From IMG/VR virus record IMGVR_UViG_3300045988_080971, positions 1-56,368 of that record: a DNA stretch of 56,368 bases; one strand, 5' to 3'. Of this stretch, positions 3,153-27,678 are shown one piece after another. Origin of the DNA: a virus. The stretch's first letter is position 1. Every line of letters starts with the position of its first letter. Made by a program: the position numbers and the translations under genes. Below the pieces are notes generated by a model, which was not told where the DNA came from, searched no databases, and saw only the letters and a program-made list of their open reading frames with translations.

Positions 3153-4139
3153 TTGATAAAACTACAAGATACAATTATACAATCTGATACTCAATCTGTC
3201 TTGAATATGCTCAAATTTGACTTAGCTCAACATGGAGTAAATAGGTTTCATATTTTTAGAAACAATGGAGAAAATATTCAGACGAATTGTCCTTTTCATA
3301 AGGGAGGACAAGAACGAAAGCCGTCATTTGGAGTAAATGGAGAGATTGATAAATGTCATTGTTTCTCATGTGGCTGGGCTGGAACAATAGAGGAAATGAT
3401 ATCTGAATTATATGGCTATCAAGACGAAGGAAAATTTGGAAAAAGATGGCTAATAAAAAGATTCAATACAGTAGAGATTGAAACAAGACCAAATATAATG
3501 GAGAGATTTAATGGAAGAAATACTAGCAATAATCGGAATACTTTCAATGACAGTAGTCATAGAGTTGACAGCATTCAAAGTGATAGACATTTTATCACAG
3601 AAGAAGAATTAGATAAGTATAGATATATTCATCCTTATATGTATGAAAGAGGATTAACAGAGGAAATTATAGAAAGGTTTGATATAGGTTATGACAGAGA
3701 ACGAAAAGAAATTACATTCCCAGTTAGAGACATTGAAGGAAGATGTGTGTTCATTGCAAGTCGAAGTATTCAAGGCAAATTTTTCAGGCTTCCGAAGGGA
3801 CTTGATAAACCGTTATATCAAGGATATAGATTCAGCACTGGAAAATATAAAGTGGCTTTTATAACAGAGTCGTTTTTAAATTGTCTTACTTGTTGGAAAT
3901 ATGATAAACCTGCTATGGCTATGATAGGAACAGGAAATCAAAAGCAATATGAAATATTGAATAAGTTACCAGTGCGTGAATATATTATTGCATTTGACCC
4001 AGACGAAGCAGGAAGAAAAGCAACAGAAAGATTCAAGAAAAATGTACATGGAAAGATTATAAAAGAGCTTGTATATCCAGATAATCGAGATATAAATGAT
4101 TTGCAAGAAGAATTTCTGAATTGCAAAATTATTTTTTAA
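3153..4139 (+). CDS. dnaG: DNA primase (CHC2 zinc finger + TOPRIM)
   Basis: CPFHKGGQERKPSFGV...CHCFSCGWAG zinc finger; TOPRIM ITESFLN and AFDPDEAGRKA; TTG start behind a GAGGTGAG RBS. Confidence 0.85.
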   Translation: MIKLQDTIIQSDTQSVLNMLKFDLAQHGVNRFHIFRNNGENIQTNCPFHKGGQERKPSFGVNGEIDKCHCFSCGWAGTIEEMISELYGYQDEGKFGKRWLIKRFNTVEIETRPNIMERFNGRNTSNNRNTFNDSSHRVDSIQSDRHFITEEELDKYRYIHPYMYERGLTEEIIERFDIGYDRERKEITFPVRDIEGRCVFIASRSIQGKFFRLPKGLDKPLYQGYRFSTGKYKVAFITESFLNCLTCWKYDKPAMAMIGTGNQKQYEILNKLPVREYIIAFDPDEAGRKATERFKKNVHGKIIKELVYPDNRDINDLQEEFLNCKIIF

Positions 4140-4934: not shown

Positions 4935-5136
4935 TGTTTCCTGGCAGACAAAAAGAAGAAAGCACATGATATTGAAAAATGGTGTGATTGGGAACTTGAG
5001 TGAGAATAAAGCTGGGAATATCACTCGTGTGCACATGAATGGAATATAAGTGGTTGCGTTTATGGGCTTATAGTGAATGTTCTGGAGGTTGTTCATTCAA
5101 AAACTAAACCAACTAAAAAGAAAGGAAAAAGAAAGT

Positions 5137-5817
5137 ATGGGAAGAATCAATTATGATGAAGTAGACAAGTACGGGAACAATTCAGACACAGAGTTTTTGA
5201 AGTTGACGAACGATGGGGACATGATTACCGCACAGCTTATGGTAAAGGATATGGAAGATGTGGATATCTATGCTTGTCATCAGGCTGTTGTCGGACAGTG
5301 GGATGATGGTAACGATAAGACAAGATTTGTGAATTGTCTGAGAAATTATGATGATCCGCTTGATGTTTGTCCAATGTGTGCCGCAGGGTTAAAGACACAG
5401 GTTGTAATGATGCTTGCAATGGTTGATCAGCAGGATGGCAAGATTAAGATTTGGAATCGTGGAAAGACGTTCATTCCAAAGATTAAGAATTTTGTAAATC
5501 GTTGGGGAGATATGACAATGAAGCCAGTTGACATCATAAGAAACGGAAAAAAAGGAGACAAGAAAACAACATATGATATTCAGATTTCTCCAGCAGAACC
5601 AATGGATATTTCACAGTACGAAAAGCCTGAATTTTTAGGCGGATATATCATGGATAAATCAGCTGATGAAATGCAGGAATACCTTGATACAGGAAGTTTT
5701 CCAGATGCAGATAATAACGATAATGAAGATAATACACAGGTAAGACGCAGAAACACTGAACCACTTCCATCAAGACGAGGAGCAAGTAGAGCAACAAGCA
5801 GAAGGGTGGGTATGTAA
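5137..5817 (+). CDS. ssDNA-binding protein, T4 gp32-like (putative)
   Basis: H-x18-C-x10-C-x2-C zinc motif resembles the gp32 H/C3 site; acidic D/N/E-rich C-terminal region; sits between primase and polymerase. Confidence 0.45.
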   Translation: MGRINYDEVDKYGNNSDTEFLKLTNDGDMITAQLMVKDMEDVDIYACHQAVVGQWDDGNDKTRFVNCLRNYDDPLDVCPMCAAGLKTQVVMMLAMVDQQDGKIKIWNRGKTFIPKIKNFVNRWGDMTMKPVDIIRNGKKGDKKTTYDIQISPAEPMDISQYEKPEFLGGYIMDKSADEMQEYLDTGSFPDADNNDNEDNTQVRRRNTEPLPSRRGASRATSRRVGM

Positions 5818-6211: not shown

Positions 6212-8473
6212 ATGGCATTATCATTTGCAAGACCAAAAAGCAATGATAAGAATATAATCAAAAAATCTAAAACAATAACAAATAGAACAAGTATCAGGAG
6301 CGGCGGAAATAATCTAGCCGCTCAAATACAATCTATAGTTGCTATTGCTAACCAAAAATTAGCAATTCATAAAGATGATTATATTCTTATTAGAGAACCA
6401 GATCAACTATATGAATATATGAAAGAAATGAAACAAGTTGGAGAGGGTGCGTTAGATACGGAGACCACAGGATTAAATCCATTACTTGTAGATATAGTCG
6501 GCGGATGTATTTATACACCTGGACAAAAAGCGGCATATATTCCAATCAATCATAAGTCGTATATTACAGGTGTAAGAACAAAGGAACAGATGGATGAGGA
6601 AACTGTTTCAAAGATTATGAAAGAGTTTCATAAGGATATTAGATGGATTTTTCATAATGCAAAGTTTGATATAAGAATATGTAGAAAGACGTTAGGTATC
6701 GACATCTTGCCATATTGGGACACAGAGATTGCCGCTCATTGTATAGATGAAGAAGAAAGTCACAGATTGAAAGACTTGCACCTTAAATATTGCGATAGTA
6801 AAGATACAGAGTCTTTGACATTTGACGCATTATTTAAGGGAGTAACATTTGATAATATTCCAATCTCAACAGGATATTTATACGCGGCGGGTGATGCAGT
6901 AAAGACATATGAATTATATCAATATCAAAAAACACTTTTGAATAGAAGAGTTTTATCCGGACCTTATAATGTATTCAAGAATATTGAAATGCCTTTGATT
7001 CCAGTTGTAGCAGACATGGAAGATAGAGGTGTATGTCTTGACTTTGATGTGTGTAAAAATTTACACGAAAAATATCATAAGATAAAGGAAGAAAGACAAA
7101 AACAAGCTGATGAAACAATAGCACTGTATAAGGATGAAATTGATAATTATAAGATGAAAAATCCTAATAATAAGTTGTCAGATCCTATATCATTATCAAG
7201 TCCAACTCAGCTTGCAATATTATTTTATGATATTTTAGGATTAGAAAGTCCAGATAAAAAAGCACCTAGAGGAACAGGAGAAGAGATTTTAAAACATTTT
7301 GCACAAGGCAAGCACCAAAATCTATGTGAGAATATTTTAGCCTTGAGAAATGTTGATAAGCTATTAAGCACTTATATTGATAAGATGCCTGAAATTGTGC
7401 TTACAGATGGAAGGATTCATGGTGAGTTTAAGCAGTATGGAGCTAAGACTGGTCGATTTAGTTCTAAAGACCCAAACTTACAGAATATCCCTTCGCATAA
7501 CAAAGATATTAGACAAATGTTTAAGGCACAGGATGGGTATGTACTTATAGGGTCGGATTTCAGTCAGCAGGAACCGATGGTTACTGCACACTTATCGGAT
7601 GATAAAAAAATGCAAGAAGCATTTATAAACGGCAAGGATATATATGCGACAATCGCCGCACTTGCATTTCATAAACCATATGAAGAGTGTAAAGAGTTCA
7701 GAAAAGATGGAACAGTAAATCCAGCCGGAAAAGAAAGAAGAACACAAGCTAAGAGCATAGTTCTTGGAATTTTGTATGGTAGACAAATTCCATCTATTGC
7801 AGAACAGCTTGGAGTTTCTACAAAGGAGGCGCAAGCCATATATGATAAGGTTATATCTTCATTTCCTGCACTCGGTAAATTTATCGAAGATTCACGAGAA
7901 ATGGCAAGAACCGAAGGATATGTAACTACTGCATGGGGTAGAAGAAGACATTTACACGATATGCAGTTAGAACGATATGAATTTTCATATAGCGGAAAAG
8001 TCACTAACTTCGACCCATTAGCATTTGGAAGTGAAGTATCTACAGAAGTTCCAAAGAAAGTAAAAGACAGTTATATCAAACAACTTGATAAAGCATTTGG
8101 GTGGAAAAAGAAAAATGATATAATTCAAAAAGCATTAGCTGAAGGAATTAAGATCAAGGATAATGGCGGATTTATAGCACAGGCGGAAAGACAATGTGTA
8201 AATGCAAGAGTACAAGGTTCAGCGGCGGATATAACAAAGCTGGCTATGATTGCTATAAACAATGATGAAAGAATGAAAGAACTTGATTTCCATTTGCTGA
8301 TACAGGTACATGATGAAGTAATAGGAGAATGTCCTATTGAAAATGCAAAGGAAGCAGGAGAAAGACTTTCATATCTTATGAGAACTGCACCTAGTCATTT
8401 GATTAAACTTCCATTCAAGTGCGATGTGGATTTTACTAAAAACTGGTACGGCGAAGAAGTGGAGATTGAATAA
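6212..8473 (+). CDS. polA: DNA polymerase I (family A) with 3'-5' exonuclease domain
   Basis: Exo motifs ALDTETTGL, HNAKFDI, YAAGDA; pol motif A GSDFSQQEP, motif B RRTQAKSIVLGILYG, motif C LIQVHDEVIGE. Confidence 0.9.
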   Translation: MALSFARPKSNDKNIIKKSKTITNRTSIRSGGNNLAAQIQSIVAIANQKLAIHKDDYILIREPDQLYEYMKEMKQVGEGALDTETTGLNPLLVDIVGGCIYTPGQKAAYIPINHKSYITGVRTKEQMDEETVSKIMKEFHKDIRWIFHNAKFDIRICRKTLGIDILPYWDTEIAAHCIDEEESHRLKDLHLKYCDSKDTESLTFDALFKGVTFDNIPISTGYLYAAGDAVKTYELYQYQKTLLNRRVLSGPYNVFKNIEMPLIPVVADMEDRGVCLDFDVCKNLHEKYHKIKEERQKQADETIALYKDEIDNYKMKNPNNKLSDPISLSSPTQLAILFYDILGLESPDKKAPRGTGEEILKHFAQGKHQNLCENILALRNVDKLLSTYIDKMPEIVLTDGRIHGEFKQYGAKTGRFSSKDPNLQNIPSHNKDIRQMFKAQDGYVLIGSDFSQQEPMVTAHLSDDKKMQEAFINGKDIYATIAALAFHKPYEECKEFRKDGTVNPAGKERRTQAKSIVLGILYGRQIPSIAEQLGVSTKEAQAIYDKVISSFPALGKFIEDSREMARTEGYVTTAWGRRRHLHDMQLERYEFSYSGKVTNFDPLAFGSEVSTEVPKKVKDSYIKQLDKAFGWKKKNDIIQKALAEGIKIKDNGGFIAQAERQCVNARVQGSAADITKLAMIAINNDERMKELDFHLLIQVHDEVIGECPIENAKEAGERLSYLMRTAPSHLIKLPFKCDVDFTKNWYGEEVEIE

Positions 8474-9636
8474 TGGAATTGTATCTAGCTGGCTCACAAC
8501 AACCTTTTGAACGTGTAAAGAGAGAGAGAGAGGATGATTTAATGGATTTATATTTAGCTGGAGAATATGTATTTACAGGAGAAAGAAAATTAGATATCGG
8601 AATTATAAGAAATCGTCTTCTTTCTTTTGATTATCAAAAAAAGTTTGTAGATACCATAATAGATTGGAAAGATAATATGGAGTTGTATTTAGCAGGTGCT
8701 GATAAATTTGGAAAAGAAGAGGTGAAACAGTATATGAAACTTTATTTAGCAGGGATGGAAGAGTCTTGTGTGGATAAGATTGACTGCAATGCCCTTTTCA
8801 GCTATATTGATCGGGGCAAACTACAATTTGATAAACTGAAAGATTTTATAAAACCCGGAAAATTATTTATAGATTCTGGTGCGTTTAGTGCATGGACAAA
8901 AGGCTCCAAAGTAAATGTGAAAGAATACATTAGCTGGCTGAACGAAAGATCCGATGATATAAATCTTTGCGGTCAAGTGGATGTTATCCCTGGAGATAGG
9001 GTTTTTGGGGCTACACCTAAACAGGTTCGGGAAGCCGCACAATCAACATGGGATAATTATCTTTTTATGAGAAAAAGACTAAAAAATCCGGATTCCTTGT
9101 TATATACATTTCATGTAGGTGAACCAATCGAATTTCTAAAACAGGCTTTAGAATGGAGAGATGAAAATGGAAATCCTATTCCTTATATGGCATTTGGTGG
9201 TATGGTTGGAAAGCCTGCTAAGATAAGGGATGTTTTCCTTGAGAAATGTTTCCGAACAATCCGGGAATCCAGTAATCCAAATATTAAGGTTCACGCTTTT
9301 GGTATGACGGATTTTGATTTATTAGAGAAATATCCTATATATTCTGCTGATAGTACAAGTTGGATTATGGTGGGGGCAATGGGAAATGTTATGAGTGATT
9401 ATGGAAATATAGCCGTATCAAATAATCAAATTCATGATAAGAATCATTATAGTCATTTACCAAAGAAAGCTATTGAGGATTTTAATAAGACAATTCAGGA
9501 ATTTGGGTTTACTTTGGACGAATTAGCAGAACATCGGGATAATCGTATATTATTTAATGCTTTGTATATGCAGAAGAAAGTAAAGGAATTAAATAAGAAA
9601 GAAAGAAAATTTTCTTATAGAAAGAGGTTATTTTAA
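8473..9636 (+). CDS. dpdA: DpdA-like DNA guanine transglycosylase (TGT superfamily) with duplicated N-terminal extension
   Basis: FIDSGAFSAW, FHVGE, MAFGGMVG, VHAFGMT and YSADSTSW motifs; TAATG overlap with the polA stop; adjacent preQ0 pathway genes. Confidence 0.7.
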   Translation: MELYLAGSQQPFERVKREREDDLMDLYLAGEYVFTGERKLDIGIIRNRLLSFDYQKKFVDTIIDWKDNMELYLAGADKFGKEEVKQYMKLYLAGMEESCVDKIDCNALFSYIDRGKLQFDKLKDFIKPGKLFIDSGAFSAWTKGSKVNVKEYISWLNERSDDINLCGQVDVIPGDRVFGATPKQVREAAQSTWDNYLFMRKRLKNPDSLLYTFHVGEPIEFLKQALEWRDENGNPIPYMAFGGMVGKPAKIRDVFLEKCFRTIRESSNPNIKVHAFGMTDFDLLEKYPIYSADSTSWIMVGAMGNVMSDYGNIAVSNNQIHDKNHYSHLPKKAIEDFNKTIQEFGFTLDELAEHRDNRILFNALYMQKKVKELNKKERKFSYRKRLF

Positions 9637-10553
9637 TGGATTTCAAATGTAGAGATTATTTATTTTCTAAAGACGATTGGTGTGATATTCGGGATATAGA
9701 AGGAGAAGAAAATGTATTAAATTCTACATTAATTCAAGAAGCTTTTGAAAAAATCCTAGATGATTATAATCCAAAATATAAATATGCAATTTTTAGCTTG
9801 TGTACTTCAACAAGACCATATCTTAAATCTAGGAAATGGAGTATGTATTATAAATGTTTTGGAAAATCTTGTGAATTAATAATATGTTCTAATGGAGGCA
9901 TAATACCTATTGAATATATGAATTGTTTTCCATTTTTAGAATATGATGCTCCACATACAAAAGAATTTACCCCACAGTATAAGAGATTATTTGTTAATAG
10001 ATTAAATAAATTTTTAGATAAATTTTCTTTTGAAAAAATAATTTTTATTTTTACACCAAACTCAAGAAATTATGAAGCATTATTGGAATTTCCTTTACCG
10101 GATAATTCTATTCTTATACCTTCATTAAAAATGTATGAAAATATAAAGAAAGGAATAGATGATAGGTACATTGGGGTATCTAGGACACGTGATATATTAT
10201 GTTGTGATACGATACTGTCTTATATAAAAAGATTTTTTTGTATTGAAAGTAATTATCTTGATATATTATATGAGAAATATCCTAATTCCCCTAAACCTAG
10301 TATGGATTCTTTGTTCAACAAGATGTTAAAAACTTTAGAAGTTGATAAAGGATATTCTTTGGAACAACTAATTTCAAAAATAATTTCATTAAATCCTATT
10401 TATTCCAGGGTTTATATTAGTAAGACAATTAAAGGCCATACAAAAAACATAGAATCAGAATTTAATAAAGAGGATAATCTTGTTTATGTGGATGGTTTAT
10501 ATTATCTTCTAAATTCTGATAAAAAGAAGGACAAACATAAAAAATTATTTTAA
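9636..10553 (+). CDS. DUF5591 / ArcS-like protein (putative 7-deazaguanine tailoring enzyme)
   Basis: LCTSTRPYLKSRKW resembles the ArcS signature PC-x3-KPY-x2-S-x2-H; TAATG overlap with the dpdA stop; very AT-rich gene. Confidence 0.45.
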   Translation: MDFKCRDYLFSKDDWCDIRDIEGEENVLNSTLIQEAFEKILDDYNPKYKYAIFSLCTSTRPYLKSRKWSMYYKCFGKSCELIICSNGGIIPIEYMNCFPFLEYDAPHTKEFTPQYKRLFVNRLNKFLDKFSFEKIIFIFTPNSRNYEALLEFPLPDNSILIPSLKMYENIKKGIDDRYIGVSRTRDILCCDTILSYIKRFFCIESNYLDILYEKYPNSPKPSMDSLFNKMLKTLEVDKGYSLEQLISKIISLNPIYSRVYISKTIKGHTKNIESEFNKEDNLVYVDGLYYLLNSDKKKDKHKKLF

Positions 10554-10571
10554 AAACTTTTCTAAAAAGGG

Positions 10572-10599
10572 TTGACTTTTATTTTTTATGTGTTACAAT
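10572..10599 (+). promoter_or_regulatory. Promoter cassette P2 (TTGACT-N16-TGtTACAAT)
   Basis: -35 at 10572-10577, -10 at 10594-10599; same tatgtgttacaatata core as P1. Confidence 0.7.
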
Positions 10600-10648
10600 A
10601 TAATCAAACCAAGGGAAACACATAAAAAATAAAAGGAGGCTTAATATT

Positions 10649-11176
10649 ATGCATTATTTATCAAGAAGGGACAACGAAACAAGGATTACTGTAAAGGAAC
10701 GGTATTCAGATGGAAATACTGTCGTAGCTGAATATCTTAATGGGGATAAGCAAGGTAAGACAGTTTCCTTCACTCATAGTACCTTAAAGAGATGGTGGAA
10801 AAAGGTAGATATAGAGGGGATATCCACAAAGTCCGAAAATTTAGAAAATAAAACTAAGAAGACAACAAGTAAGAAAAAACCTACAAAAATTGACAGAACA
10901 GAAGATATAAAAAAGATAGTTGAGATGTTCACCGATGATTATGAGTATAAATATTATGATTCAGTTAAATGTTATAAAATTTATGATATTATGAATCAGG
11001 CAACAGTTATTGCTGAAGTTTATCCCCGTAGAAAAAATATTGAAGTGCGTGTAAGGAATGTGAAAGAGAATGTAAAGGTAAATTATAAAGACGGTTATAA
11101 ATATTATTTACCAGTTCATTATTATGTTCCTTATGAAACGGATTATATCAAAATTATTAAGGATCTTTTATCTTAA
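10649..11176 (+). CDS. Hypothetical protein (175 aa), lysine-rich central linker
   Basis: AAAGGAGG RBS; first gene after P2. Confidence 0.55.
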   Translation: MHYLSRRDNETRITVKERYSDGNTVVAEYLNGDKQGKTVSFTHSTLKRWWKKVDIEGISTKSENLENKTKKTTSKKKPTKIDRTEDIKKIVEMFTDDYEYKYYDSVKCYKIYDIMNQATVIAEVYPRRKNIEVRVRNVKENVKVNYKDGYKYYLPVHYYVPYETDYIKIIKDLLS

Positions 11177-11312
11177 TCTTTTAATGTCTGTGATACCGGA
11201 CAGATACGGTCAATATCATAGAAAGTGAGGAAACCACTATGAAAAAACCTAGAGCTCCTTCTTAATTTTTTAATTTATTATCTTATAAATTAAATTATGT
11301 GGAGGTATAATT

Positions 11313-11777
11313 ATGGACAAAAAAGAATATATGAATTTAGGTGTATGTGAAGCCACTACCACAATGTACTTGAATATCGGTGGTCCATTTGGAGCAGTTG
11401 TTGTCAAAGACGGAGAAATTATTTCCGTTGCAAGTAATACAGTTCTTGGGGATAACGATCCAACAGCCCACGCAGAAGTGAACGCAATTAGAAAAGCTTG
11501 TAAAAAGCTTGGAACATATGATTTGACTGGGTGTGAATTATATGCCACAGGTTATCCATGCCCAATGTGTTTATCAGCTATCATATGGGCTAACATTAGA
11601 AAAGTGTATTATTGTAATGATGTAAAACAGGCAGAGAATATTGGTTTTCGGGACGATTTCATTTACGATTATATAAAGAATGGAAATCCGGATGTATTAG
11701 ATCTAGAATCTTGTACAACGGAACAAGGTTTAGGTTTATATGATCAATATACAGGGATGAACAAAATCATTTATTAA
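11313..11777 (+). CDS. CDA-fold zinc deaminase, GuaD-type guanine deaminase-like
   Basis: GGPFGAVVVKDG, DPTAHAEVNAIRKAC, PCPMCLSAI and GFRDDFIYDY closely recall Bacillus subtilis GuaD (about 155 aa). Confidence 0.7.
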   Translation: MDKKEYMNLGVCEATTTMYLNIGGPFGAVVVKDGEIISVASNTVLGDNDPTAHAEVNAIRKACKKLGTYDLTGCELYATGYPCPMCLSAIIWANIRKVYYCNDVKQAENIGFRDDFIYDYIKNGNPDVLDLESCTTEQGLGLYDQYTGMNKIIY

Positions 11778-11790
11778 GGAGGAAAAATAT

Positions 11791-12495
11791 ATGAAAGCAT
11801 TAGTATTAAATTCAGGTGGTGTAGATTCAACAACTTGTGTTGCAATAGCGGTAGATAAATATGGCAAAGAAAATGTTATAACAGCCTCTTTATATTATGG
11901 ACAGAAACATGATAAAGAATTACAGTGTGCTAAAAAGATCGCTGAATATTATGGTGTAAGACATATTGAGGAAGATATTTCAAATGTTATGAAGTACGCG
12001 GGTGAAGTTTGTTCTCTTGTTAAAGGTTCTAAAGAAGAGATTTTGGATATGAGTTATGCCGACCAGATCAAACAGAATGGAGAAGGACGTGTTGGTACTT
12101 ATGTACCTTTTAGAAATGGATTATTATTATCCATTGCCACAGCTTTTGCAGATAGTCTTTTCCCAGGAGAAGAAGTAGAAGTGTTCTATGGAGCTCATGC
12201 AGATGATGCGGCAGGTGAAGCATACGCAGATTGTTCTCCAGAATTTGCAGATGCTATGGATAAGGCAATAAATATTGGAACTTATGGAAAAATCCATATC
12301 AATCGACCACTTATCCACATGAATAAAGCGGAAGTGGTCAAAACCGGATTATCTTTGGGTGTACCTTATGAAATGACATGGAGTTGTTATCATGGAGGTG
12401 AAAAAGCCTGTGGAAGATGTGGAACGTGTATTGATAGGAGACACGCGTTTGAAGCCAATGGTGTAGGAGACCCTATTGAATATGAGGAGGATTAA
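11791..12495 (+). CDS. queC: 7-cyano-7-deazaguanine (preQ0) synthase QueC
   Basis: PP-loop LNSGGVDSTT; C-terminal zinc cluster CGRCGTCIDR. Confidence 0.9.
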   Translation: MKALVLNSGGVDSTTCVAIAVDKYGKENVITASLYYGQKHDKELQCAKKIAEYYGVRHIEEDISNVMKYAGEVCSLVKGSKEEILDMSYADQIKQNGEGRVGTYVPFRNGLLLSIATAFADSLFPGEEVEVFYGAHADDAAGEAYADCSPEFADAMDKAINIGTYGKIHINRPLIHMNKAEVVKTGLSLGVPYEMTWSCYHGGEKACGRCGTCIDRRHAFEANGVGDPIEYEED

Positions 12496-12499
12496 AAAA

Positions 12500-12853
12500 A
12501 TGTATTATGTATCAAAAAGAATGGAAATTGCAGGAGCTCATTATTTAGAGCTCCCATATGACAGCAAGTGTGGGAACTTACATGGGCATAATTGGATAAT
12601 TACCGTCCATTGTAAATCAGACAAGCTCACTGATTATGGAATGATCGTAGATTTTACAAAGATTAAGAAAGAAATACACGATAAGTTAGACCATTCTTGT
12701 GTGAATGAGGTAGTTTGTCCACTCAACCCAACGGCTGAGAATATAGCAAGATGGGTATTTGAAAGAGTTTCAGATATTTGTGAAGTCGGAACGTGTTATA
12801 AGGTAGAGGTACAGGAAAGTGAAGGAAATATTGCTACCTATGTGGAGGATTAG
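12500..12853 (+). CDS. queD: 6-carboxy-5,6,7,8-tetrahydropterin synthase QueD
   Basis: HGHNW motif, about 117 aa; GAGGAGG RBS 10 nt upstream of the ATG at 12500. Confidence 0.85.
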   Translation: MYYVSKRMEIAGAHYLELPYDSKCGNLHGHNWIITVHCKSDKLTDYGMIVDFTKIKKEIHDKLDHSCVNEVVCPLNPTAENIARWVFERVSDICEVGTCYKVEVQESEGNIATYVED

Positions 12854-12855
12854 AT

Positions 12856-13500
12856 ATGAAAGTAGTAGAAATATTTAAAAGCATTGATGGTGAGGGCAAA
12901 CGAGCTGGTTTACCCACCACATTTGTAAGATTATTTGGATGTAATTTGAATTGCTCATACTGTGATACAAGATACGGCTGTGAGGGGGATAAGTATACGA
13001 TTATGAGTATCCCTAATATAATAGATACATTAGAAAGGTATGGAACTAAATCAATTACAATCACTGGAGGGGAGCCACTTATACATCCAGGAATAAATCA
13101 TCTTGTTGAGGTGCTACTCCATAGAGGTTATTGGGTTAATATTGAGACAAACGGTTCACAGTACATCGGGCATCTTCCAACTAACCCAAATGTTTTCGTG
13201 ACAATGGATTATAAATGTCCTTCCAGTGGAATGCAAGATAAGATGTGTTTAGCTAATTTTCGTGAATTATCCAATACGGATGTCTTAAAATTTGTTGTAG
13301 GCTCATATGAAGACCTAGTATGTGCTTTAAGTATATTAGAGGAATATAAACCGTCTGCACAGGTTTATTTCAGCCCAGTATTTGGGGAGATTGAACCAGC
13401 GGCGATTGTTGATTTTATTTTAGACAATAAATTGGATAATTGTAAGATACAGTTGCAAATGCACAAGATAATTTGGGAACCAAATAAGAGAGGAGTATAA
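12856..13500 (+). CDS. queE: 7-carboxy-7-deazaguanine synthase QueE (radical SAM)
   Basis: [16 protein letters not shown] cluster motif; GGEPL. Confidence 0.85.
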
Positions 13501-13501
13501 G

Positions 13502-14074
13502 ATGATAGATAAGAAAAGAATTGAAAAGGCAGTAAAAGAAATCTTAATTGCTTTAGGGGATAACCCGGAAAGACCCGGACTTGTAGATACACCAAAAAGA
13601 GTAGCTAAGATGTATGAGGAAGTATTTGAGGGAATGAACTACACCAACGATGAGATCGCAGAAAAATTCTGCAAATGTTTTGACACAGATAACGAGGATC
13701 TTGTTGTTGTAAAGGATATTCCAATTTTCAGTTATTGTGAACATCATCTAGCTTTGATGTATAATATGAGTGTGTCTATTGCTTATATTCCAAATGGAAA
13801 GGTATTAGGTCTAAGCAAATTTGCTCGGATTGCGGATATGGTTGGAAAGCGTCTACAGTTGCAGGAAAGAATTGGTTCCGATATAGCTGATATTATTCAG
13901 TTGGCTACTGGATCAAATGATGTGTTGGTTGTTGTTGAGGGGGAGCATAGTTGTATGACAGCTAGAGGTATTAAGAGTCGAGGAGCTAAAACAAGAACCG
14001 CGACAATCCGGGGGTTATTTGAGTCTAATGTAGAGCTTCGCAAAGAAGCCTATTCTTTAATGAGTTTGAACTGA
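13502..14074 (+). CDS. folE: GTP cyclohydrolase I (FolE)
   Basis: FSYCEHHL and RLQLQERI motifs, 190 aa. Confidence 0.9.
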
Positions 14075-14087
14075 AGGAGGAAAAAGA

Positions 14088-15188
14088 ATGAAGGTAGTAA
14101 CAAGTAGAATGAAAGAAGCAGTAAACAAAGCAATTAAAGGAGCAGGATTTAATAATCTTATTCCTATTACCTCAATGATTGGTATTAAATTGTCAGATGG
14201 AAAGTTAAGATTACTTACAACAGACATGACTAATACATTATGTATTATCATTGACAAGGTAGCTGGGGACGATATGGACATCACAGTAGATGCAGATAAG
14301 TTTGGAAAACTGATTGCAAAGACAACTTCGGAAGATATTGATTTATCTGTAAAAGATGATGTACTTTTTGTCAAAGCAAACGGAATTTATAAGATTCCGT
14401 TGATTTCAGATGAAGAAGGACTTATCTCATTCCCAGATGTGAATCAGGAGTATGGTGCACCTCCTGAGAAGTGGACAGACGTTAAGCTTTCAAGTATAAT
14501 GCAGGCTTATAATATCAATAAATCAGCATTAGCAAAAACACTTGAGAACCCGGCTCTAACCGGTTACTATTGCGGAGATACTGTTATTTCAACTGATGCA
14601 AATGTAATTACATTCAATGGATTTAAGATGTTTGCATGGGATTTTCCAGTATTGATTTCAGCACAGCAGATGGCGTTAATCTCCCTATTTAAGGAGGAAG
14701 ATATAAAAGTAACTTGTGACCCTGAAAGAATTATTTTTGTAACAGATACACAGATTGTTGAAGGAAGTTTGATGGAAGGGGTTGAGGACTTCCCAGCTAA
14801 TGAAGTAAACGCTTATCTTGATGAGGCATTTACATCTTCTTGCAAAGTACCAAAGGATTTACTTCTTTCCGTACTTGATCGTCTTGCACTATTCATTGAA
14901 CCATATGATAAGAATGGAGCATATTTCACATTCGGAAGAAAGGGTATCAATATTCATAGTAAAAAGGACGCATCTACAGAGACTATCAACTATGTGGAAA
15001 GCAAGGACTTTGCGCCGTTTGTGTGTTGTGTGGATATTCCAATGTTGAAAGAGCAGTTGCAGGCTAACCCGGACGATACAGTGAAGATCTGTTACGGAAA
15101 TGAAAATGCGTTGAAGATTGAGAGCGGAAAAGTAACACAGGTTATAGCTCTACTTGAAGATGAGGAACTTGACAATATAAACGCATGA
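14088..15188 (+). CDS. DNA sliding clamp, beta (DnaN)-like
   Basis: 366 aa; N-terminal pattern IPITSMIGIKLSDGKLRLLTTD...DADKFGKLI matches the beta-clamp domain 1 layout; replisome context. Confidence 0.65.
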   Translation: MKVVTSRMKEAVNKAIKGAGFNNLIPITSMIGIKLSDGKLRLLTTDMTNTLCIIIDKVAGDDMDITVDADKFGKLIAKTTSEDIDLSVKDDVLFVKANGIYKIPLISDEEGLISFPDVNQEYGAPPEKWTDVKLSSIMQAYNINKSALAKTLENPALTGYYCGDTVISTDANVITFNGFKMFAWDFPVLISAQQMALISLFKEEDIKVTCDPERIIFVTDTQIVEGSLMEGVEDFPANEVNAYLDEAFTSSCKVPKDLLLSVLDRLALFIEPYDKNGAYFTFGRKGINIHSKKDASTETINYVESKDFAPFVCCVDIPMLKEQLQANPDDTVKICYGNENALKIESGKVTQVIALLEDEELDNINA

Positions 15189-15591: not shown

Positions 15592-16389
15592 ATGGCAAGA
15601 AAACTATTAAATTTAATCAATAACAATCAGCCACAACTTCCTGCAAATAAGAAATTTTTAGCTGATGTTATGAGTTGTATTGAAAGGATAGAGCAGAGAG
15701 ATCGGAGAACAGGAAGTAATTACTATAAGCCGTCATTATTGCATTGTATGAGGAATATGTATTTCACTCGTACAAAAGCACCACAAGACCCGGAAACAGT
15801 AGAATATAATTCTACTGGGATGGCAGATACAGGAACAGCAAGGCACGAAGCATTACAAAATGCATTGTTAAATTTACAGAAAATGGGATATGATTGGAAA
15901 TATCTTGATGTTGCTGAATATGTTAAAGAAAAACAGAAGTTCGGTAAATGTAAATCCTTGATCGTGAAAGAAAAGCAGGGAGCAGAAACACATCTTATAG
16001 ATACTGCATTAAACTTATCTTTTCGTTGTGATGGAATTATAAGAAGAATTTCAACAAACGAAGATTACTTATGGGAGTTCAAGAATGTTGTTTCTTTCAA
16101 ATATAACCAGTTAGATAATCATTGTTTAGAACAGCATCATAATCAGGTTATATGCTATTGTACTGTACTTGATTTAGATAAGGCATTTGTAATGTATGAA
16201 AATAGGGATATTTGTACGCTTGAAGTTCCGGAAGTGTTTGAAGTCACACAGGATATGAAAAACTGGTTGTGCAATTATATTTCAGAATGTGAGGGATATG
16301 TAGAAAGACTGATTGCTCCACCTAAAACAGAAGATACAAGTAATTGTAGATGGTGCAGATATAAATCTATATGCAGAAAGGTTGGATAA
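15592..16389 (+). CDS. PD-(D/E)XK exonuclease, Cas4/RecB-like with Fe-S cysteines
   Basis: DGIIR...EFKN nuclease core; one N-terminal Cys plus the C-terminal CRWCRYKSIC. Confidence 0.65.
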   Translation: MARKLLNLINNNQPQLPANKKFLADVMSCIERIEQRDRRTGSNYYKPSLLHCMRNMYFTRTKAPQDPETVEYNSTGMADTGTARHEALQNALLNLQKMGYDWKYLDVAEYVKEKQKFGKCKSLIVKEKQGAETHLIDTALNLSFRCDGIIRRISTNEDYLWEFKNVVSFKYNQLDNHCLEQHHNQVICYCTVLDLDKAFVMYENRDICTLEVPEVFEVTQDMKNWLCNYISECEGYVERLIAPPKTEDTSNCRWCRYKSICRKVG

Positions 16390-23821: not shown

Positions 23822-24154
23822 ATGACAACTAGATATTATTCTGATAGACAGGAAAAACATATAGCCATAGTAACCAGAGGTAAAGTGCAGAGCAACTCCG
23901 GCGGAACAAGATTTGGAGGGGGTGATGTACATACAAAAAAATTCTTTATAGAGGCTAAAACGCCTACAACTGAGAACCAGTCATTTTCCATTAAAAAAGG
24001 GTGGTTTCAAAAACTGTATGAACAGACTTATGAGCAAGGAAAACTTGAGGGAGTTCTTGCTTTTAGATTTTCGCCAGATGATAGAACTGATATGTATGTT
24101 TTGAATGAGCGACAGTTCTTAGAGTATTTAAGATATAAGGAGGATAATGAATAA
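23822..24154 (+). CDS. PD-(D/E)XK-like nuclease, possible Hjc-type resolvase
   Basis: GGGDVHTKKFFIEAKT resembles a D...E-x-K catalytic core; small size. Confidence 0.35.
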   Translation: MTTRYYSDRQEKHIAIVTRGKVQSNSGGTRFGGGDVHTKKFFIEAKTPTTENQSFSIKKGWFQKLYEQTYEQGKLEGVLAFRFSPDDRTDMYVLNERQFLEYLRYKEDNE

Positions 24155-25203
24155 TGGCAAAAGAATCACTGGCAGTTAAATATCGACCTCGTTCGTTTGA
24201 GGATCTTACTGAACAGGGTGCAATTAAAGATATTTTGGAAAATCAGATTAAAACAAAGACATTTCAGCATGGGTATTTGTTTACTGGTCCGGCAGGAACA
24301 GGTAAGACAACATCTGCAAGAATCTTTGCGAGCATGATAAATGATGGAAAGGGGAATCCTATCGAAGTGGATGCCGCAAGTAATAGTGGCGTTGATAATG
24401 TTCGTCAGATTATAGACGATGCAAAAAGAAAACCACTTGATGCCGAATACAAGATATTCATAGTGGATGAGTGTCATTCATTGTCAAATGGGGCATGGCA
24501 GGCATTATTAAAGACACTTGAAGAACCTCCAAAGTTTACTATTTTCATTTTCTGCACCACTGACCCACAGAAAGTACCTGCAACAATTCTTTCAAGAGTA
24601 CAGAGATACAATTTTCAGAAGATAAGTAATGAAGGTATCGTGGAAAGATTAGAGCATATTTGCCTAACTGAAAATTCTCAAGATGTAAATGACCCAAATT
24701 TAACGGATATCGGAGATATAATAAGATATCCAGAAGCATTAGAATATATTGCTAAGGTTTGTAATGGTGGTATGAGAGATGCTATAACTTTGATGGATAA
24801 ATGTCTTTCATTATCTCCAGATTTAACACTGGAAAATGTGTTAAAAACTATAGGTGTAGAAGATTATAATACATTTATATTATTCTTAATGGCATTACAG
24901 AATAAAGAAAAAGGAACTGCCATTACTACAATAGAAAATGTATATAATGCCGGTAAAGATGTAAAGCAGTTTATGAAAGACTTTGCAAAGTTTGTTCTTG
25001 AGGTGGAAAAGTATATTTTATATGGAAACTTTGACTATATAAGTATTCCCTCAACACTGAAAGAGGACTTGGATTCTTTGGATAACACATCTGTATTTGA
25101 TATTATGGATTTTGTGGTTAATCTTAATAATCAGCTTAAATGGGAAAATGATCCAAAGACATTGATTGAATTATCTATCTTGATTTATTGTGGAAAGGAG
25201 TAG
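24154..25203 (+). CDS. dnaX: Clamp-loader ATPase, DnaX (gamma/tau)-like
   Basis: GPAGTGKTT Walker A, IVDECH Walker B, LEEPP, SRVQRY sensor motif. Confidence 0.8.
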   Translation: MAKESLAVKYRPRSFEDLTEQGAIKDILENQIKTKTFQHGYLFTGPAGTGKTTSARIFASMINDGKGNPIEVDAASNSGVDNVRQIIDDAKRKPLDAEYKIFIVDECHSLSNGAWQALLKTLEEPPKFTIFIFCTTDPQKVPATILSRVQRYNFQKISNEGIVERLEHICLTENSQDVNDPNLTDIGDIIRYPEALEYIAKVCNGGMRDAITLMDKCLSLSPDLTLENVLKTIGVEDYNTFILFLMALQNKEKGTAITTIENVYNAGKDVKQFMKDFAKFVLEVEKYILYGNFDYISIPSTLKEDLDSLDNTSVFDIMDFVVNLNNQLKWENDPKTLIELSILIYCGKE

Positions 25204-25207
25204 ATAT

Positions 25208-25993
25208 ATGATTGGTCAGAAAAACAACATAAATACTCTTATCCAGTGGCGGTGTAATAAGTCAGTTCCTAGATTCATTATCATTTCTGGTGATATGGGT
25301 AGCGGAAGATTGACCCTTGCGAAAGTAATTATAAAAATGATAAATGCAAAAGGAATAATCGTGGGAAATAGTATTGCAGAAGTCCGGGAAACAATAGAAA
25401 ATGCTTATACTATTACAGAACCGATCTGTTATATATTTAGAAATGCTGATGATATGAGAACAGAGGCTAAAAATGCGCTCCTTAAAGTTGTGGAAGAACC
25501 GCCAAACAACGCTTATTTTATAATGACTGTTGAAAACATAGATAATATGTTGGGAACTATCAAGAGCAGGGGAACAGTAATATCAATGGAACCTTACTCT
25601 CAGAAAGAATTAAAAAGTGTTTGTGATGATGACTTTATTTTGCAGTATGCTACAAATATAGCAGATACAAAGCGAGAAAGAGCAGAGTTGGAAAGAACTG
25701 AGGATTGTGTACTTGATGTTATAGCTGGAATGAAAGCTAAAAGCGGAACAAAGATATTAAAAGCTACTACACAGTTAAGATCAAAAGCCACAGAAACAGA
25801 TAAGATTGATTGTTTATTATTTATGCTCATGTTCAAAGCAGAGCTTTTACATCATCCCGAATTATACAATCAAAACAGTTTAAAACATCTTGTGAAATGC
25901 ACCCAGGAACTACAGAGGATGAGTGTTAATAAAAAAGCGAGCATTGAATGTATGCTGGTGTCGTTATTAGAGGAGGTAAAGAATGAGACTTAA
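25208..25993 (+). CDS. Clamp-loader subunit, delta-prime-like
   Basis: Degenerate P-loop GDMGSGRLT; VEEPP; IKSRG. Confidence 0.6.
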   Translation: MIGQKNNINTLIQWRCNKSVPRFIIISGDMGSGRLTLAKVIIKMINAKGIIVGNSIAEVRETIENAYTITEPICYIFRNADDMRTEAKNALLKVVEEPPNNAYFIMTVENIDNMLGTIKSRGTVISMEPYSQKELKSVCDDDFILQYATNIADTKRERAELERTEDCVLDVIAGMKAKSGTKILKATTQLRSKATETDKIDCLLFMLMFKAELLHHPELYNQNSLKHLVKCTQELQRMSVNKKASIECMLVSLLEEVKNET

Positions 25994-26258
25994 AGAAATA
26001 TATCCTGGGATATTCACTGGAGTTTATCGAGGTGTAGAGTGCGGAGTTGATAATGATACAGGAAATTGGAATTATTCTGGAACACTTCCATTTCCTGACG
26101 TGTCCCAGCCTAGATTTAGCAGTTATGATAACGTCATTGTTTTTAGTAGCTTTGAGGATTGTGTGGGCGCCTTAAAGAAATATATAGATAGTGTATATGA
26201 AAGGCGGGAAGAATATGCAAAGCTTTCCAAGACGATGGAACATAAAGACCAAAATTGA
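25983..26258 (+). CDS. Hypothetical protein (91 aa)
   Basis: ORF overlapping neighbours within the clamp-loader operon. Confidence 0.45.
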   Translation: MRLKEIYPGIFTGVYRGVECGVDNDTGNWNYSGTLPFPDVSQPRFSSYDNVIVFSSFEDCVGALKKYIDSVYERREEYAKLSKTMEHKDQN

Positions 26259-26577
26259 ATATTTACAGCGTAAGATTATATTAAATAGTATAGCATACTA
26301 TGAACTAAATACAAATAAGCTCACAGATAAACAGTATGACGAGTTGAGCAGGCAGTTGGTAGCTATGCAAGTAGAATACCCGAACATAATGGACACTCAG
26401 TATGGTTATGTGTTTTATGACTTTGATGGTTCAACCGGGTTTGACTTGTATCATAGACTTAATAGGCATGACAAAGAATATTTATATAATATAGCTTGTC
26501 ATGTTTGCAATGATATAAAATCTATAAAGCAAGCAAAACCTAAACCAGTCAAGAAAAAGAAAGGAGTATTATTTTGA
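26215..26577 (+). CDS. Small protein resembling the NAD-ligase (LigA) domain Ia, with basic ...VLF tail
   Basis: IEYLQRKIILNSIAYYELNTNKLTDKQYDELSRQLVAMQVEYP resembles LigA Ia; no KxDG adenylation motif. Confidence 0.35.
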   Translation: MQSFPRRWNIKTKIEYLQRKIILNSIAYYELNTNKLTDKQYDELSRQLVAMQVEYPNIMDTQYGYVFYDFDGSTGFDLYHRLNRHDKEYLYNIACHVCNDIKSIKQAKPKPVKKKKGVLF

Positions 26578-26765
26578 CAACAAACGAAACAAAGAAATAT
26601 AGAGCATGGTTTTCCAAACAGTGGATAATTGTATGTAAGCAGTTGAAGAAATCGAGCATAGACTGGAATCATGTATATATTACACCTTCTCCACTTTTGA
26701 AAAATCCACCGGAGAGGAGTGAGATACTTGGAACTGTCGGAATTGATGAAGAAGATTTCTGGTAA
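26574..26765 (+). CDS. Hypothetical protein (63 aa)
   Basis: TTG start overlapping the upstream stop. Confidence 0.35.
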   Translation: MTTNETKKYRAWFSKQWIIVCKQLKKSSIDWNHVYITPSPLLKNPPERSEILGTVGIDEEDFW

Positions 26766-27678
26766 TGATATTCCTCATTATCTAGTGTTGTATGGGCAAG
26801 AACAAACTGTATTAGATATGTACATTAAGCAGATAGTGAGCATGACACAATCACAAGCAGTATATGTTGATACCGTAGCAAGTGTTATAAAGCAATGTGG
26901 AAAAAAGAGTCTCAATAAATCTGTGAAATGCTATATTGTATCAGACGACCTGTCTTATCTTAAAGCAGGAACTGTTTGGGATAAGATAAAGAAAGATTTT
27001 AAAAAAAGTAAGGACTATTTGATATTGAGGTATCACACATTAGACAAGAGAGATAAATTTTCACACAACAATAAGGAAAATTTAACTGAATTTGCGCATT
27101 TAAGTGCTGAGGTGCTACAACAATACATCTATAAAGATTTACCGGATTTAAGTGAAAAAAATGCTTTATCTTTAATTGACTACTGTAATTATGATTATGG
27201 TAGAATATTGATGGAAATTGACAAAATCAAACAGTATATGTCGGTTAGAACAGACCTAACAGTAGATAGTTGTTTCAATCAGTTAGATAGACAAGGATTA
27301 TTTCATAAAGAAATCGGAGATATAACATTTGAACTTACTAATGCGGTGTTGGGTGGATATACAGATCAAGCTATTGTGAAATTGGACGAGGCAAAGCGCA
27401 AGAACGAACCAGCTATGATGATAGCCTCAATTTTATATAACGGATTTAGAAATCTTTTAGCATATCAAGGACTCGGTAAAAATAAACAAGGTGCAATGGA
27501 AAGGACTGGATTGACTAAAGGTGAATTATACGGATGCTCAAAAAACATAGGTGGATATAGTTTATCAGAAGTAAAAAGAAATATGTTGTTCTGTCAGCAA
27601 GTAGAATCCGGAATAAAAACAGGACTAATTGATGAAGATATAGCACTTGATTATTTAGTATTGCATTGTTTAAGATAA
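26719..27678 (+). CDS. Clamp-loader subunit, delta (HolA)-like (putative)
   Basis: PHYLVLYGQEQ N-terminal pattern, size and operon position; start uncertain (GTG 26719, TTG 26728 or ATG 26746). Confidence 0.45.
   Translation: MRYLELSELMKKISGNDIPHYLVLYGQEQTVLDMYIKQIVSMTQSQAVYVDTVASVIKQCGKKSLNKSVKCYIVSDDLSYLKAGTVWDKIKKDFKKSKDYLILRYHTLDKRDKFSHNNKENLTEFAHLSAEVLQQYIYKDLPDLSEKNALSLIDYCNYDYGRILMEIDKIKQYMSVRTDLTVDSCFNQLDRQGLFHKEIGDITFELTNAVLGGYTDQAIVKLDEAKRKNEPAMMIASILYNGFRNLLAYQGLGKNKQGAMERTGLTKGELYGCSKNIGGYSLSEVKRNMLFCQQVESGIKTGLIDEDIALDYLVLHCLR

Follow-up and report, generated by a model that had tools for sequence, protein, structure and literature searches.

The question raised by this locus is why three proteins of one phage, each from a different family, should end in nearly the same few residues. 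The DNA concerned is IMG/VR virus record IMGVR_UViG_3300045988_080971, positions 1 to 56,368 (this whole stretch is called the window here), a phage genome of 56.4 kb and 35% GC with nearly all of its genes on the + strand. The initial annotation had noticed that a DpdA-like protein, a DUF5591-like protein and a LigA-Ia-like protein encoded among the clamp-loader genes finish in a lysine- and arginine-rich run followed by Leu-Phe (LF), and had suggested that these tails bind the sliding clamp that the phage itself encodes. Our analysis indicates that the tail is almost certainly a real, selected, shared functional peptide, carried by this phage and by hundreds of relatives. On the sequence comparisons given below, the basic-xLF C-terminus is probably a portable short linear motif that docks DNA-acting enzymes on the phage beta-type clamp. 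The features on which the argument turns are as follows.

8473..9636, +, gene of a DpdA-type DNA 7-deazaguanine transglycosylase (phrog_887 at 2.6e-47)
9595..9633, +, DpdA C-terminal tail (KKERKFSYRKRLF; ends KFSYRKRLF), with the terminal L386-F387 invariant
9636..10553, +, DUF5591 gene (ArcS core domain, ArcS2-like; PF17884 at 1.1e-11)
10521..10550, +, DUF5591/ArcS2-like C-terminal tail (KKKDKHKKLF)
11791..14074, +, QueC, QueD, QueE and FolE, the free-base preQ0 pathway (Pfam assignments; without tail)
14088..15188, +, beta-type sliding clamp, the proposed receptor (phrog_947 at 2.3e-34)
24154..27678, +, clamp-loader operon (tau 24154-25203, delta' 25190-25993, Nlig-Ia, delta 26719-27678)
26191..26577, +, stand-alone LigA Ia-domain (Nlig-Ia) gene between delta' and delta (PF22745 at 1.6e-17; phrog_6466)
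26536..26574, +, Nlig-Ia C-terminal tail (KPKPVKKKKGVLF; ends KKKKGVLF)
6212-8473, family-A DNA polymerase (PolA)
6212..6280, +, PolA N-terminus, a candidate polymerase clamp-binding motif (MALSFARPKSNDKNIIKKSKT...)

The three open reading frames (ORFs) and their ends are as first described, and the family calls made for them hold, with the matches given above. Other C-termini remarked on at the time are also correct (MTLF on the tail-fibre candidate, KIIF on the primase and SLHKF on the initiator). A Pfam scan of the window DpdA gave no match. Its AlphaFold2 (AF2) model has a mean predicted local distance difference test score (pLDDT) of 84, the best Foldseek matches of that model are archaeosine and queuine tRNA-guanine transglycosylases (TGTs; probability 1.0 to ArcTGT and TGT), and the protein is 39-41% identical to the DpdAs of Flasso and Dp-1. 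The gene is also associated with the preQ0 genes FolE, QueD, QueE and QueC. By TGT fold and homology the product of 8473-9636 is thus classed as a DpdA-type transglycosylase and is predicted to carry out base exchange, a reaction demonstrated on DNA for DpdA relatives such as those of Dp-1, 9g and Rosebush (PMC6884629). The DUF5591 protein, whose gene overlaps the dpdA stop codon, scores 45.3 bits against PF17884 (cut-off 26). Phage ArcS has been equated with the DUF5591 domain and named ArcS2, and the C1-domain motif of that family is given as PC-X3-KPY-X2-S-X2-H (PMC10516641). A megablast search with 6212-15188 for a near-identical isolate phage returned no match.

LF is the C-terminus of 4 of the 102 called window genes, against 0.27-0.31 expected (P about 2e-4), and a basic run followed by LF ends 3 of the 102, against 0.02-0.06 expected (P 2e-6 to 3e-5). 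No such basic-run end was found among 341 spurious minus-strand ORFs of the same DNA. Both P values are post hoc, so conservation in homologues is the real, independent test of the pattern.

The tail passes that test most clearly in DpdA. All 10 related IMG/VR contigs (57-98% identity) retain F[ST][FY]R[KR][KRG]LF, and LF is the C-terminus in 120/120 of the closest 90% clusters. Of the 149 representatives of 50% clusters (30-58% identity), 87 have LF at the end, 16 LW and 9 LL or LI; in about 10 more, LF lies two residues in from the C-terminus. In our alignment (A1), L386 and F387 are invariant together with the catalytic residues. Right-anchored statistics show the same: L and F are fixed, positions -6 to -3 are 49-72% Lys/Arg, and the last 10 residues are almost free of acidic ones. 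One large subclade has the C-terminus ...PGPKKLSLF. For ArcS2/DUF5591, 45 of 69 homologues end in LF preceded by basic residues, including members with the common 215-224-amino-acid (aa) architecture, which is without the C-terminal extension of the window protein. For Nlig-Ia, six related contigs retain KKKKG[GVK]LF after 15-20 residues that cannot be aligned, and an unconserved linker leading to a kept tail is the classic signature of a short linear motif.

We then counted C-termini in a census of 103 loci with 2326 unique ORFs. Besides the window it took in isolate phages and about 100 viral contigs that encode a relative of DpdA or Nlig-Ia. LF was the most frequent C-terminal dipeptide, and a few families accounted for 123 of the 135 ORFs that end in it. 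Tailed among unique members were DpdA (73/87), Nlig-Ia (9/21), a family with a weak match to CxxCxxCC/YkgJ, the family of DpdM (5/7), a DUF6884-like family of 166 aa (6/7), DUF6884 itself (3/6), an S-adenosylmethionine (SAM)-methyltransferase adjoining dpdA (6/6), DUF5591 (2/4), a PAPS-reductase-like family (3/4), two N6_N4 DNA methyltransferase families (4/4; phrog_67 at 1e-40) and an unknown 176-aa family (4/4). The DpdM assignment in the census comes from a sub-threshold CxxCxxCC match, while gp53 of Cellulophaga phage phi38:2 passes the threshold; a tblastn search of isolate phages with the DpdM-like protein of locus L100 gave no match. The window's own free-base enzymes QueC, QueD, QueE and FolE served as internal negative controls. 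Across the census an L[FW] C-terminus was found in none of the QueC (0/44), QueD (0/33), QueE (0/41), FolE (0/39) and QueF (0/4) proteins and in no dCMP deaminase (0/28), which makes 0/161 without the deaminases and 0/189 with them. The tail therefore occurs on at least nine unrelated folds or families, and it sets enzymes with a plausible action on DNA apart from those that produce the free base.

These results strongly support the early view of the tails as one shared peptide marking DNA-acting enzymes and replisome partners, given its conservation, its portability across folds and its absence from free-base enzymes; for the clamp as the partner the support is circumstantial. The early count of three tailed proteins was too low, since DpdA and ArcS2 carry the motif family-wide, and in relatives it extends to DNA methyltransferases and other enzymes.

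The unannotated family of about 176 aa, which has no Pfam or PHROG match, lies at 14575-15102 in L033, 13926-14456 in L037, 13611-14120 in L048 and 11650-12195 in L065. Its tails read RRRLF, RKKLF, KKRLF or RKPLF. In the first three loci the gene is 13-210 nucleotides (nt) upstream of the clamp gene, and the L065 locus ends before any clamp gene. We regard this family as a candidate new clamp client or DNA-modifying enzyme.

Could the tail be a by-product of the DNA, that is, the Shine-Dalgarno sequence and AT-rich spacer of an overlapping downstream gene, or AT-rich codon bias before a stop? In the window there is some reason to ask. The 3' end of dpdA (AGAAAGAGG TTA TTT TAATG at 9616-9640) overlaps the next gene through TAATG and spells AAGAGG, so that the tail codons AGA AAG AGG TTA TTT TAATG serve at once as Shine-Dalgarno sequence and spacer for that gene. 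The Nlig-Ia tail codons likewise include AAAGGAG shortly before the next ORF, and codons for Lys, Leu and Phe are AT-rich in a genome of 35% GC. However, the dpdA genes of 8 of 11 close relatives precede an intergenic promoter, not an overlapping gene, yet keep the tail. A promoter also follows the DUF5591 stop in the window, and in most other tailed families the Shine-Dalgarno sequence comes after the stop codon. The codons themselves vary synonymously, Leu being written TTA, CTT, TTG, CTG or CTA (TTA or CTG in the Nlig-Ia tails of relatives) and Phe TTT or TTC. Because LF is conserved while its codons vary and the 3' context differs, purifying selection is on the peptide and not on the DNA. 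The spurious ORFs of the same DNA and the free-base enzyme set, which is encoded in the same tightly packed operons, are free of the tail as well. We therefore rejected a ribosome-binding-site or AT-bias origin as a general explanation and consider it extremely improbable.

Four independent, circumstantial lines point to the clamp as the partner: the class of the motif, the synteny of dpdA and the clamp gene, charge complementarity, and an N-terminal LF on PolA. As the initial annotation had stated, the phage encodes its own clamp and loader, with cognate genes for tau/gamma, delta' and delta. The clamp is a three-domain protein of about 366 aa with full-length homology to DnaN in profile searches, and the clamp-family profile matches 44 solved beta clamps over profile positions 1-335 (best 4tr6, 1e-23). 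A single-sequence search of the PDB with the window clamp gave a best E of 0.58, and the Pfam clamp N-terminal domain scored 21.4 bits on it, below the cut-off.

The bacterial clamp-binding motif is QL[SD]LF, or more generally QxxLF, with positions 1, 4 and 5 mattering most (PMC12309361; PMC9690074). DnaE3 polymerases conserve just xxxLF, frequently with Gly at position 3 (PMC12309361). The window tails carry LF, corresponding to positions 4-5, at the extreme C-terminus, and in the AF2 model of DpdA the last helix ends at residue 375, leaving residues 376-387 as coil with falling pLDDT (71-85 in the tail). DpdAs of Proteobacteria phages, encoded beside a clamp gene, end in QPGLF (Vibrio 1.117.O), QQGLFV (BcepGomr), QSLW (ZHS), IQELF (EC151, Vid5, PaMx25 and Iggy) or LQDLFDE (Nonagvirus).

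Among 59 metagenomic loci whose sequence continues for at least 6 kb downstream of dpdA, 55 have a clamp gene on that side, 12-5000 nt away. Profile matches place a phrog_947 clamp next to dpdA or no more than about 1.3 kb downstream in Nonagvirus, Vibrio 1.117.O and BcepGomr, and record annotation places a clamp likewise next to or near dpdA in EC151, PaMx25, Iggy, SE1 and ZHS. We had considered Queuovirinae and Iggy phages as clamp-less negative controls and rejected them, because their dpdA adjoins a phrog_947 clamp gene. A related clamp gene is found 0.1 kb (MS1) and 0.6 kb (Flasso) downstream of dpdA, and in phi38:2 one gene cluster holds both genes, the clamp about 2.5 kb downstream of dpdA. 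In several phages, two or three tandem dpdA paralogues immediately precede the clamp, and every copy has a tail of its own (...KRLF or similar). Two copies are present in L069-L076, L079, L084 and L086 and three in L089; the gap between the last copy and the clamp is 12 nt in the two-copy loci and 181 nt in L089.

The charge of the tail mirrors that of the clamp. Directly after its last strand the window clamp has an acidic C-terminal extension (LLEDEELDNINA), and acidic C-termini (LLEDEE..., ATADEE..., IMDDEDTEEE) are present on 68/68 clamp homologues of the window's wider group, in which the client tails are basic. In Queuovirinae the clamp ends in a neutral ...GFRL, as E. coli beta does, and the DpdA tails are neutral or acidic (QELF, QDLFDE). 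In phi38:2 the clamp end is basic (KHKKK...) and the tails are ...ETSVNLF and ...DNQVNLF. Over 47 unique DpdA-clamp pairs, tail charge and clamp C-terminal charge gave a Spearman rho of -0.41 (P = 0.004, uncorrected for phylogeny). According to PMC2685083, E. coli beta loses its clefts when its last five residues are removed. Since those residues belong to the cleft, a C-terminal extension of the clamp would start at the binding site, and by analogy with E. coli beta the acidic extension of the window clamp would lie beside its cleft.

All 64 unique PolA homologues begin with M-x(0-4)-LF, LSF or LL, and a basic linker of about 50 residues then leads to the exonuclease domain, whereas an N-terminal LF occurs in 1.8% of other ORFs. 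In the window, a strong GAGGAGG ribosome-binding site fixes the PolA start codon. A replicative polymerase must bind its processivity factor, and since the N-terminal LF is the sole motif-like element on PolA, M-x-LF is likely to be the polymerase's clamp-binding motif. We also considered QLAILF at PolA residue 333 as an internal clamp-binding motif and rejected it as part of what we take to be a motif conserved in family-A polymerases.

If the tails do dock on the clamp, the terminal Leu-Phe would insert into a hydrophobic cleft at the clamp's C-terminal face in the manner of positions 4-5 of QL[SD]LF, QxxLF and xxxLF, and the Lys/Arg run would pair with the acidic extension beside it. Clamps loaded by the phage tau/delta/delta' loader, together with clamps left on the new duplex, would carry several clients along the DNA. 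Among these would be DpdA, exchanging G for preQ0; the ArcS2-like amidotransferase, finishing the modification on DNA; the stand-alone Nlig-Ia; and, in relatives, DNA methyltransferases, DpdM-like proteins and other enzymes. PolA would use its N-terminal M-x-LF for the same clamp site. On this reading modification might, as the initial annotation proposed, take place during replication. The literature places insertion by DpdA after replication (PMC10516641), and clamps that stay on new duplex would be consistent with this. Both the physical contact of tail and clamp and its timing relative to the fork are what we infer from the lines above, as is the grouping of the tail-bearing families as clients of one clamp.

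Several observations weigh against docking on the clamp. Gln at motif position 1, which matters in E. coli, is absent from the window tails (RKRLF, HKKLF and KGVLF), and the charge correlation is modest and without phylogenetic correction. An AF2 model of the clamp alone, built from an alignment of sequences that were all >81% identical, reached a pLDDT of 49 and was discarded. The DpdAs of L106, L108 and L109 are tail-less although they come from clamp-encoding phages, so the tail is not obligatory. Conversely, four loci with a tailed DpdA (L098, L100-L102) show no clamp within 10 kb. Nlig-Ia is tailed only in close relatives of the window; its homologues in MS1 and phiCTP1 are without the tail despite the same clamp family. 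Of the published systems, the claimed contact between T4 alpha-glucosyltransferase and gp45 was not reproduced in vitro or in vivo (bioRxiv 10.64898/2025.12.06.692756), and a phage-host two-hybrid map of Dp-1 lists nothing for its DpdA ORF (orf7). In the library searched, no paper connects DpdA with a clamp, and the main DpdA papers never use the word 'clamp'.

A portable, selected peptide would suit any common receptor, and the tail could dock on the clamp loader, PolA, DnaB helicase or a host protein (the host beta clamp included), or could hold the enzymes together in a mutual assembly. Nlig-Ia sits inside the clamp-loader operon, tail-less DpdAs occur in clamp-encoding phages, and in phi38:2 the tail is on proteins flanking DpdA and not on DpdA, which could mean assembly around DpdA. 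We nevertheless judge another partner unlikely. At the extreme C-terminus xxxLF, QxxLF and KLSLF are the class known for beta clamps, in distant phage groups no gene adjoins dpdA as consistently as that of the clamp, the charge of the tail follows that of the clamp C-terminus, and DpdA is itself tailed and so cannot be the receptor alone. The tail might also need no protein partner, acting as a non-specific DNA-binding or scanning appendage in which Lys and Arg grip the backbone and Leu-Phe wedges or stacks. Its confinement to DNA-acting families and its basic composition, almost devoid of acidic residues, are what such an appendage would have. But the invariant part is the terminal LF and not the basic run, and phages of Proteobacteria and Bacteroidota keep LF amid neutral or acidic residues (IQELF, LQDLFDE, VNLF) that are unfit for binding DNA. 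A strict position at the extreme C-terminus with a free carboxylate is typical of pocket binding, and PolA has the same dipeptide at its opposite terminus; we consider the appendage quite improbable.

An intramolecular or regulatory role, in which the tail folds back (for autoinhibition or a dimer contact) or serves as a C-terminal degron or stability signal, draws on the pLDDT of the DpdA tail, which at 71-85 is not clearly that of a disordered segment. Hydrophobic C-terminal ends can also act as protease tags. With at least nine unrelated folds tailed there is no common intramolecular pocket, which rules out a fold-specific role, and the tail of the DpdA model has no secondary structure. A degron explains neither the restriction to DNA-acting enzymes nor the synteny with the clamp, and we see very little chance that this class of explanation is right.

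Docking on the clamp is thus the reading we favor, and it has a wider form that we put forward more tentatively. It is possible, if not quite probable, that the tails amount to a 'modification toolbelt' in a large group of virulent phages, most of them uncultured. Each enzyme that works on DNA after its synthesis would there have a clamp-binding tail specific to its lineage. Among the enzymes would be DpdA, ArcS2, DpdM-like proteins, DNA methyltransferases, DUF6884 and PAPS-reductase-like proteins, and Queuovirinae, Iggyvirus, Dp-1-like and Cellulophaga phages would show echoes of the toolbelt.

Bacterial DpdA depends on DpdB, a ParB-like ATPase that in a model forms a dimer able to encircle double-stranded DNA (PMC10164549). 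In our set, DpdAs without the LF tail adjoin ParB-like genes in Rosebush (L110; gp1 matches phrog_723 at 4e-65), Sonali (L114), L103 and L105. In L103 and L105 ArcS2 is also tail-less, and no clamp or PolA was seen within 20 kb. No ParB-like gene was found in the window or in the roughly 100 clamp-linked loci. In phi38:2 (L111/L116), a ParB-like gene and a clamp gene coexist, the clamp in the same operon, and the ParB-like and DpdM-like proteins end in VNLF while DpdA is not tailed. A strict split between a ParB-like neighbor and a clamp with tail was therefore rejected, since phi38:2 has both and three tail-less DpdAs occur with clamps. Judging from this small sample, DpdA may acquire a DNA-tracking partner by either of two routes, which are sometimes combined.

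Other genes of the window referred to here are as follows.

1698-2969, DnaB
3153-4139, primase (C-terminus KIIF)
5077-5817, SSB (basic C-terminus, SRRVGM)
11313-11777, dCMP/cytidine deaminase

The deaminase gene sits inside the 7-deazaguanine cluster, between the ArcS2-like gene and queC, and is kept in 28 unique relatives. A second class of C-terminal motif was seen in the relatives L001-L102, where SSB, DnaB and primase often end in acidic residues plus [VIL]F (EVF, DVF, DEF, IIF or ELF). The Nonagvirus SF2 helicase ends in DFDDDIPF, and gp38 and gp60 of phi38:2 end in DDLPF and DDVPF, resembling the tip of bacterial SSB; the window SSB is instead basic at its C-terminus. The gene directly after the clamp (15592-16389) has no Pfam match in the window, and its positional counterparts are annotated as Cas4 in Flasso and as a RecB exonuclease in MS1. 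Its product ends in ...ELW in 11/61 relatives and in ...CRKVG in the window. Among the loader genes, Nlig-Ia is an NAD+-binding domain, and the tau of L008 (16819-18897) is 692 aa long, with an insertion of about 345 aa that splits its homology to the window tau into residues 1-107 and 454-685. This insertion may be an intein or homing element.

Whether QueF, ArcS, DpdM and DpdN of phages act on DNA or on the free base has been left open (PMC6884629, PMC10516641). If the tail does bind the clamp, it would provide a sequence mark that resolves the DNA and free-base steps of hypermodification pathways. It would also explain how a phage DpdA without the DpdB ATPase finds its sites and reaches high replacement levels. 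A phage DNA-modification pathway would then be clearly coupled to the replisome; the sole earlier example of such coupling (T4 alpha-glucosyltransferase with gp45) is disputed. In the toolbelt form, hypermodification would rely for its processivity and targeting on the replicative sliding clamp, in place of the ParB-like DpdB of bacteria and some phages. In practical terms, new DNA-modifying enzymes could be picked out by the tail, DUF6884 and the 176-aa family for example, with tailed unknowns beside clamp genes as candidates, and deleting the tail would give a clean genetic handle on modification density. Expression studies commonly use C-terminal tags, which may mask the motif.

Both clamp-binding peptides and DNA modification tethered to a clamp are already known kinds. 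One close system is the bacterial clamp-binding motif of Pol II, Pol IV, UmuC, MutS, Hda and PolC, which like the window tails is short, usually terminal, LF-ended and portable across unrelated proteins (PMC9690074, PMC12309361). It serves one hydrophobic cleft on a dimeric three-domain clamp, and many DpdA relatives end in ...KLSLF, QPGLF or QQGLF. The window lineage differs in having a Lys/Arg run in place of the Gln at position 1 and an acidic clamp extension not seen in E. coli beta. The candidate clients also differ, being hypermodification and methylation enzymes and not polymerases and repair proteins.

In eukaryotes, DNMT1 and UNG2 bind PCNA through PCNA-interacting-protein (PIP) boxes, so that a modifying enzyme with a clamp peptide acts on new DNA right behind the fork. 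That system differs in clamp family (PCNA), in motif (Qxx[ILM]xxFF) and in chemistry, and the proposed phage system would equip a whole multi-enzyme pathway with one tag. T4 gp45 and its clients (gp43, gp55, gp33 and T4 ligase) are alike in layout, as a phage clamp hub with C-terminal hydrophobic peptides (PMC6212786). The proposal that alpha-glucosyltransferase rides gp45 is alike in idea, although that precedent is the disputed one, and gp45 is a trimeric PCNA-like clamp. Bacterial Dpd systems also pair DpdA with a DNA-associated partner, DpdB; the window phage instead has a tail and a clamp, with no ParB-like gene near dpdA. The SSB C-terminal tip (DDDIPF) is another C-terminal ...F handle in replication, with the opposite charge, other carriers and another receptor. 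Set against these systems, what appears to be new is a client set that takes in the whole hypermodification and methylation toolbox, a basic form of the motif matched to an acidic extension of the clamp, and a tail that discriminates DNA-acting from free-base enzymes.

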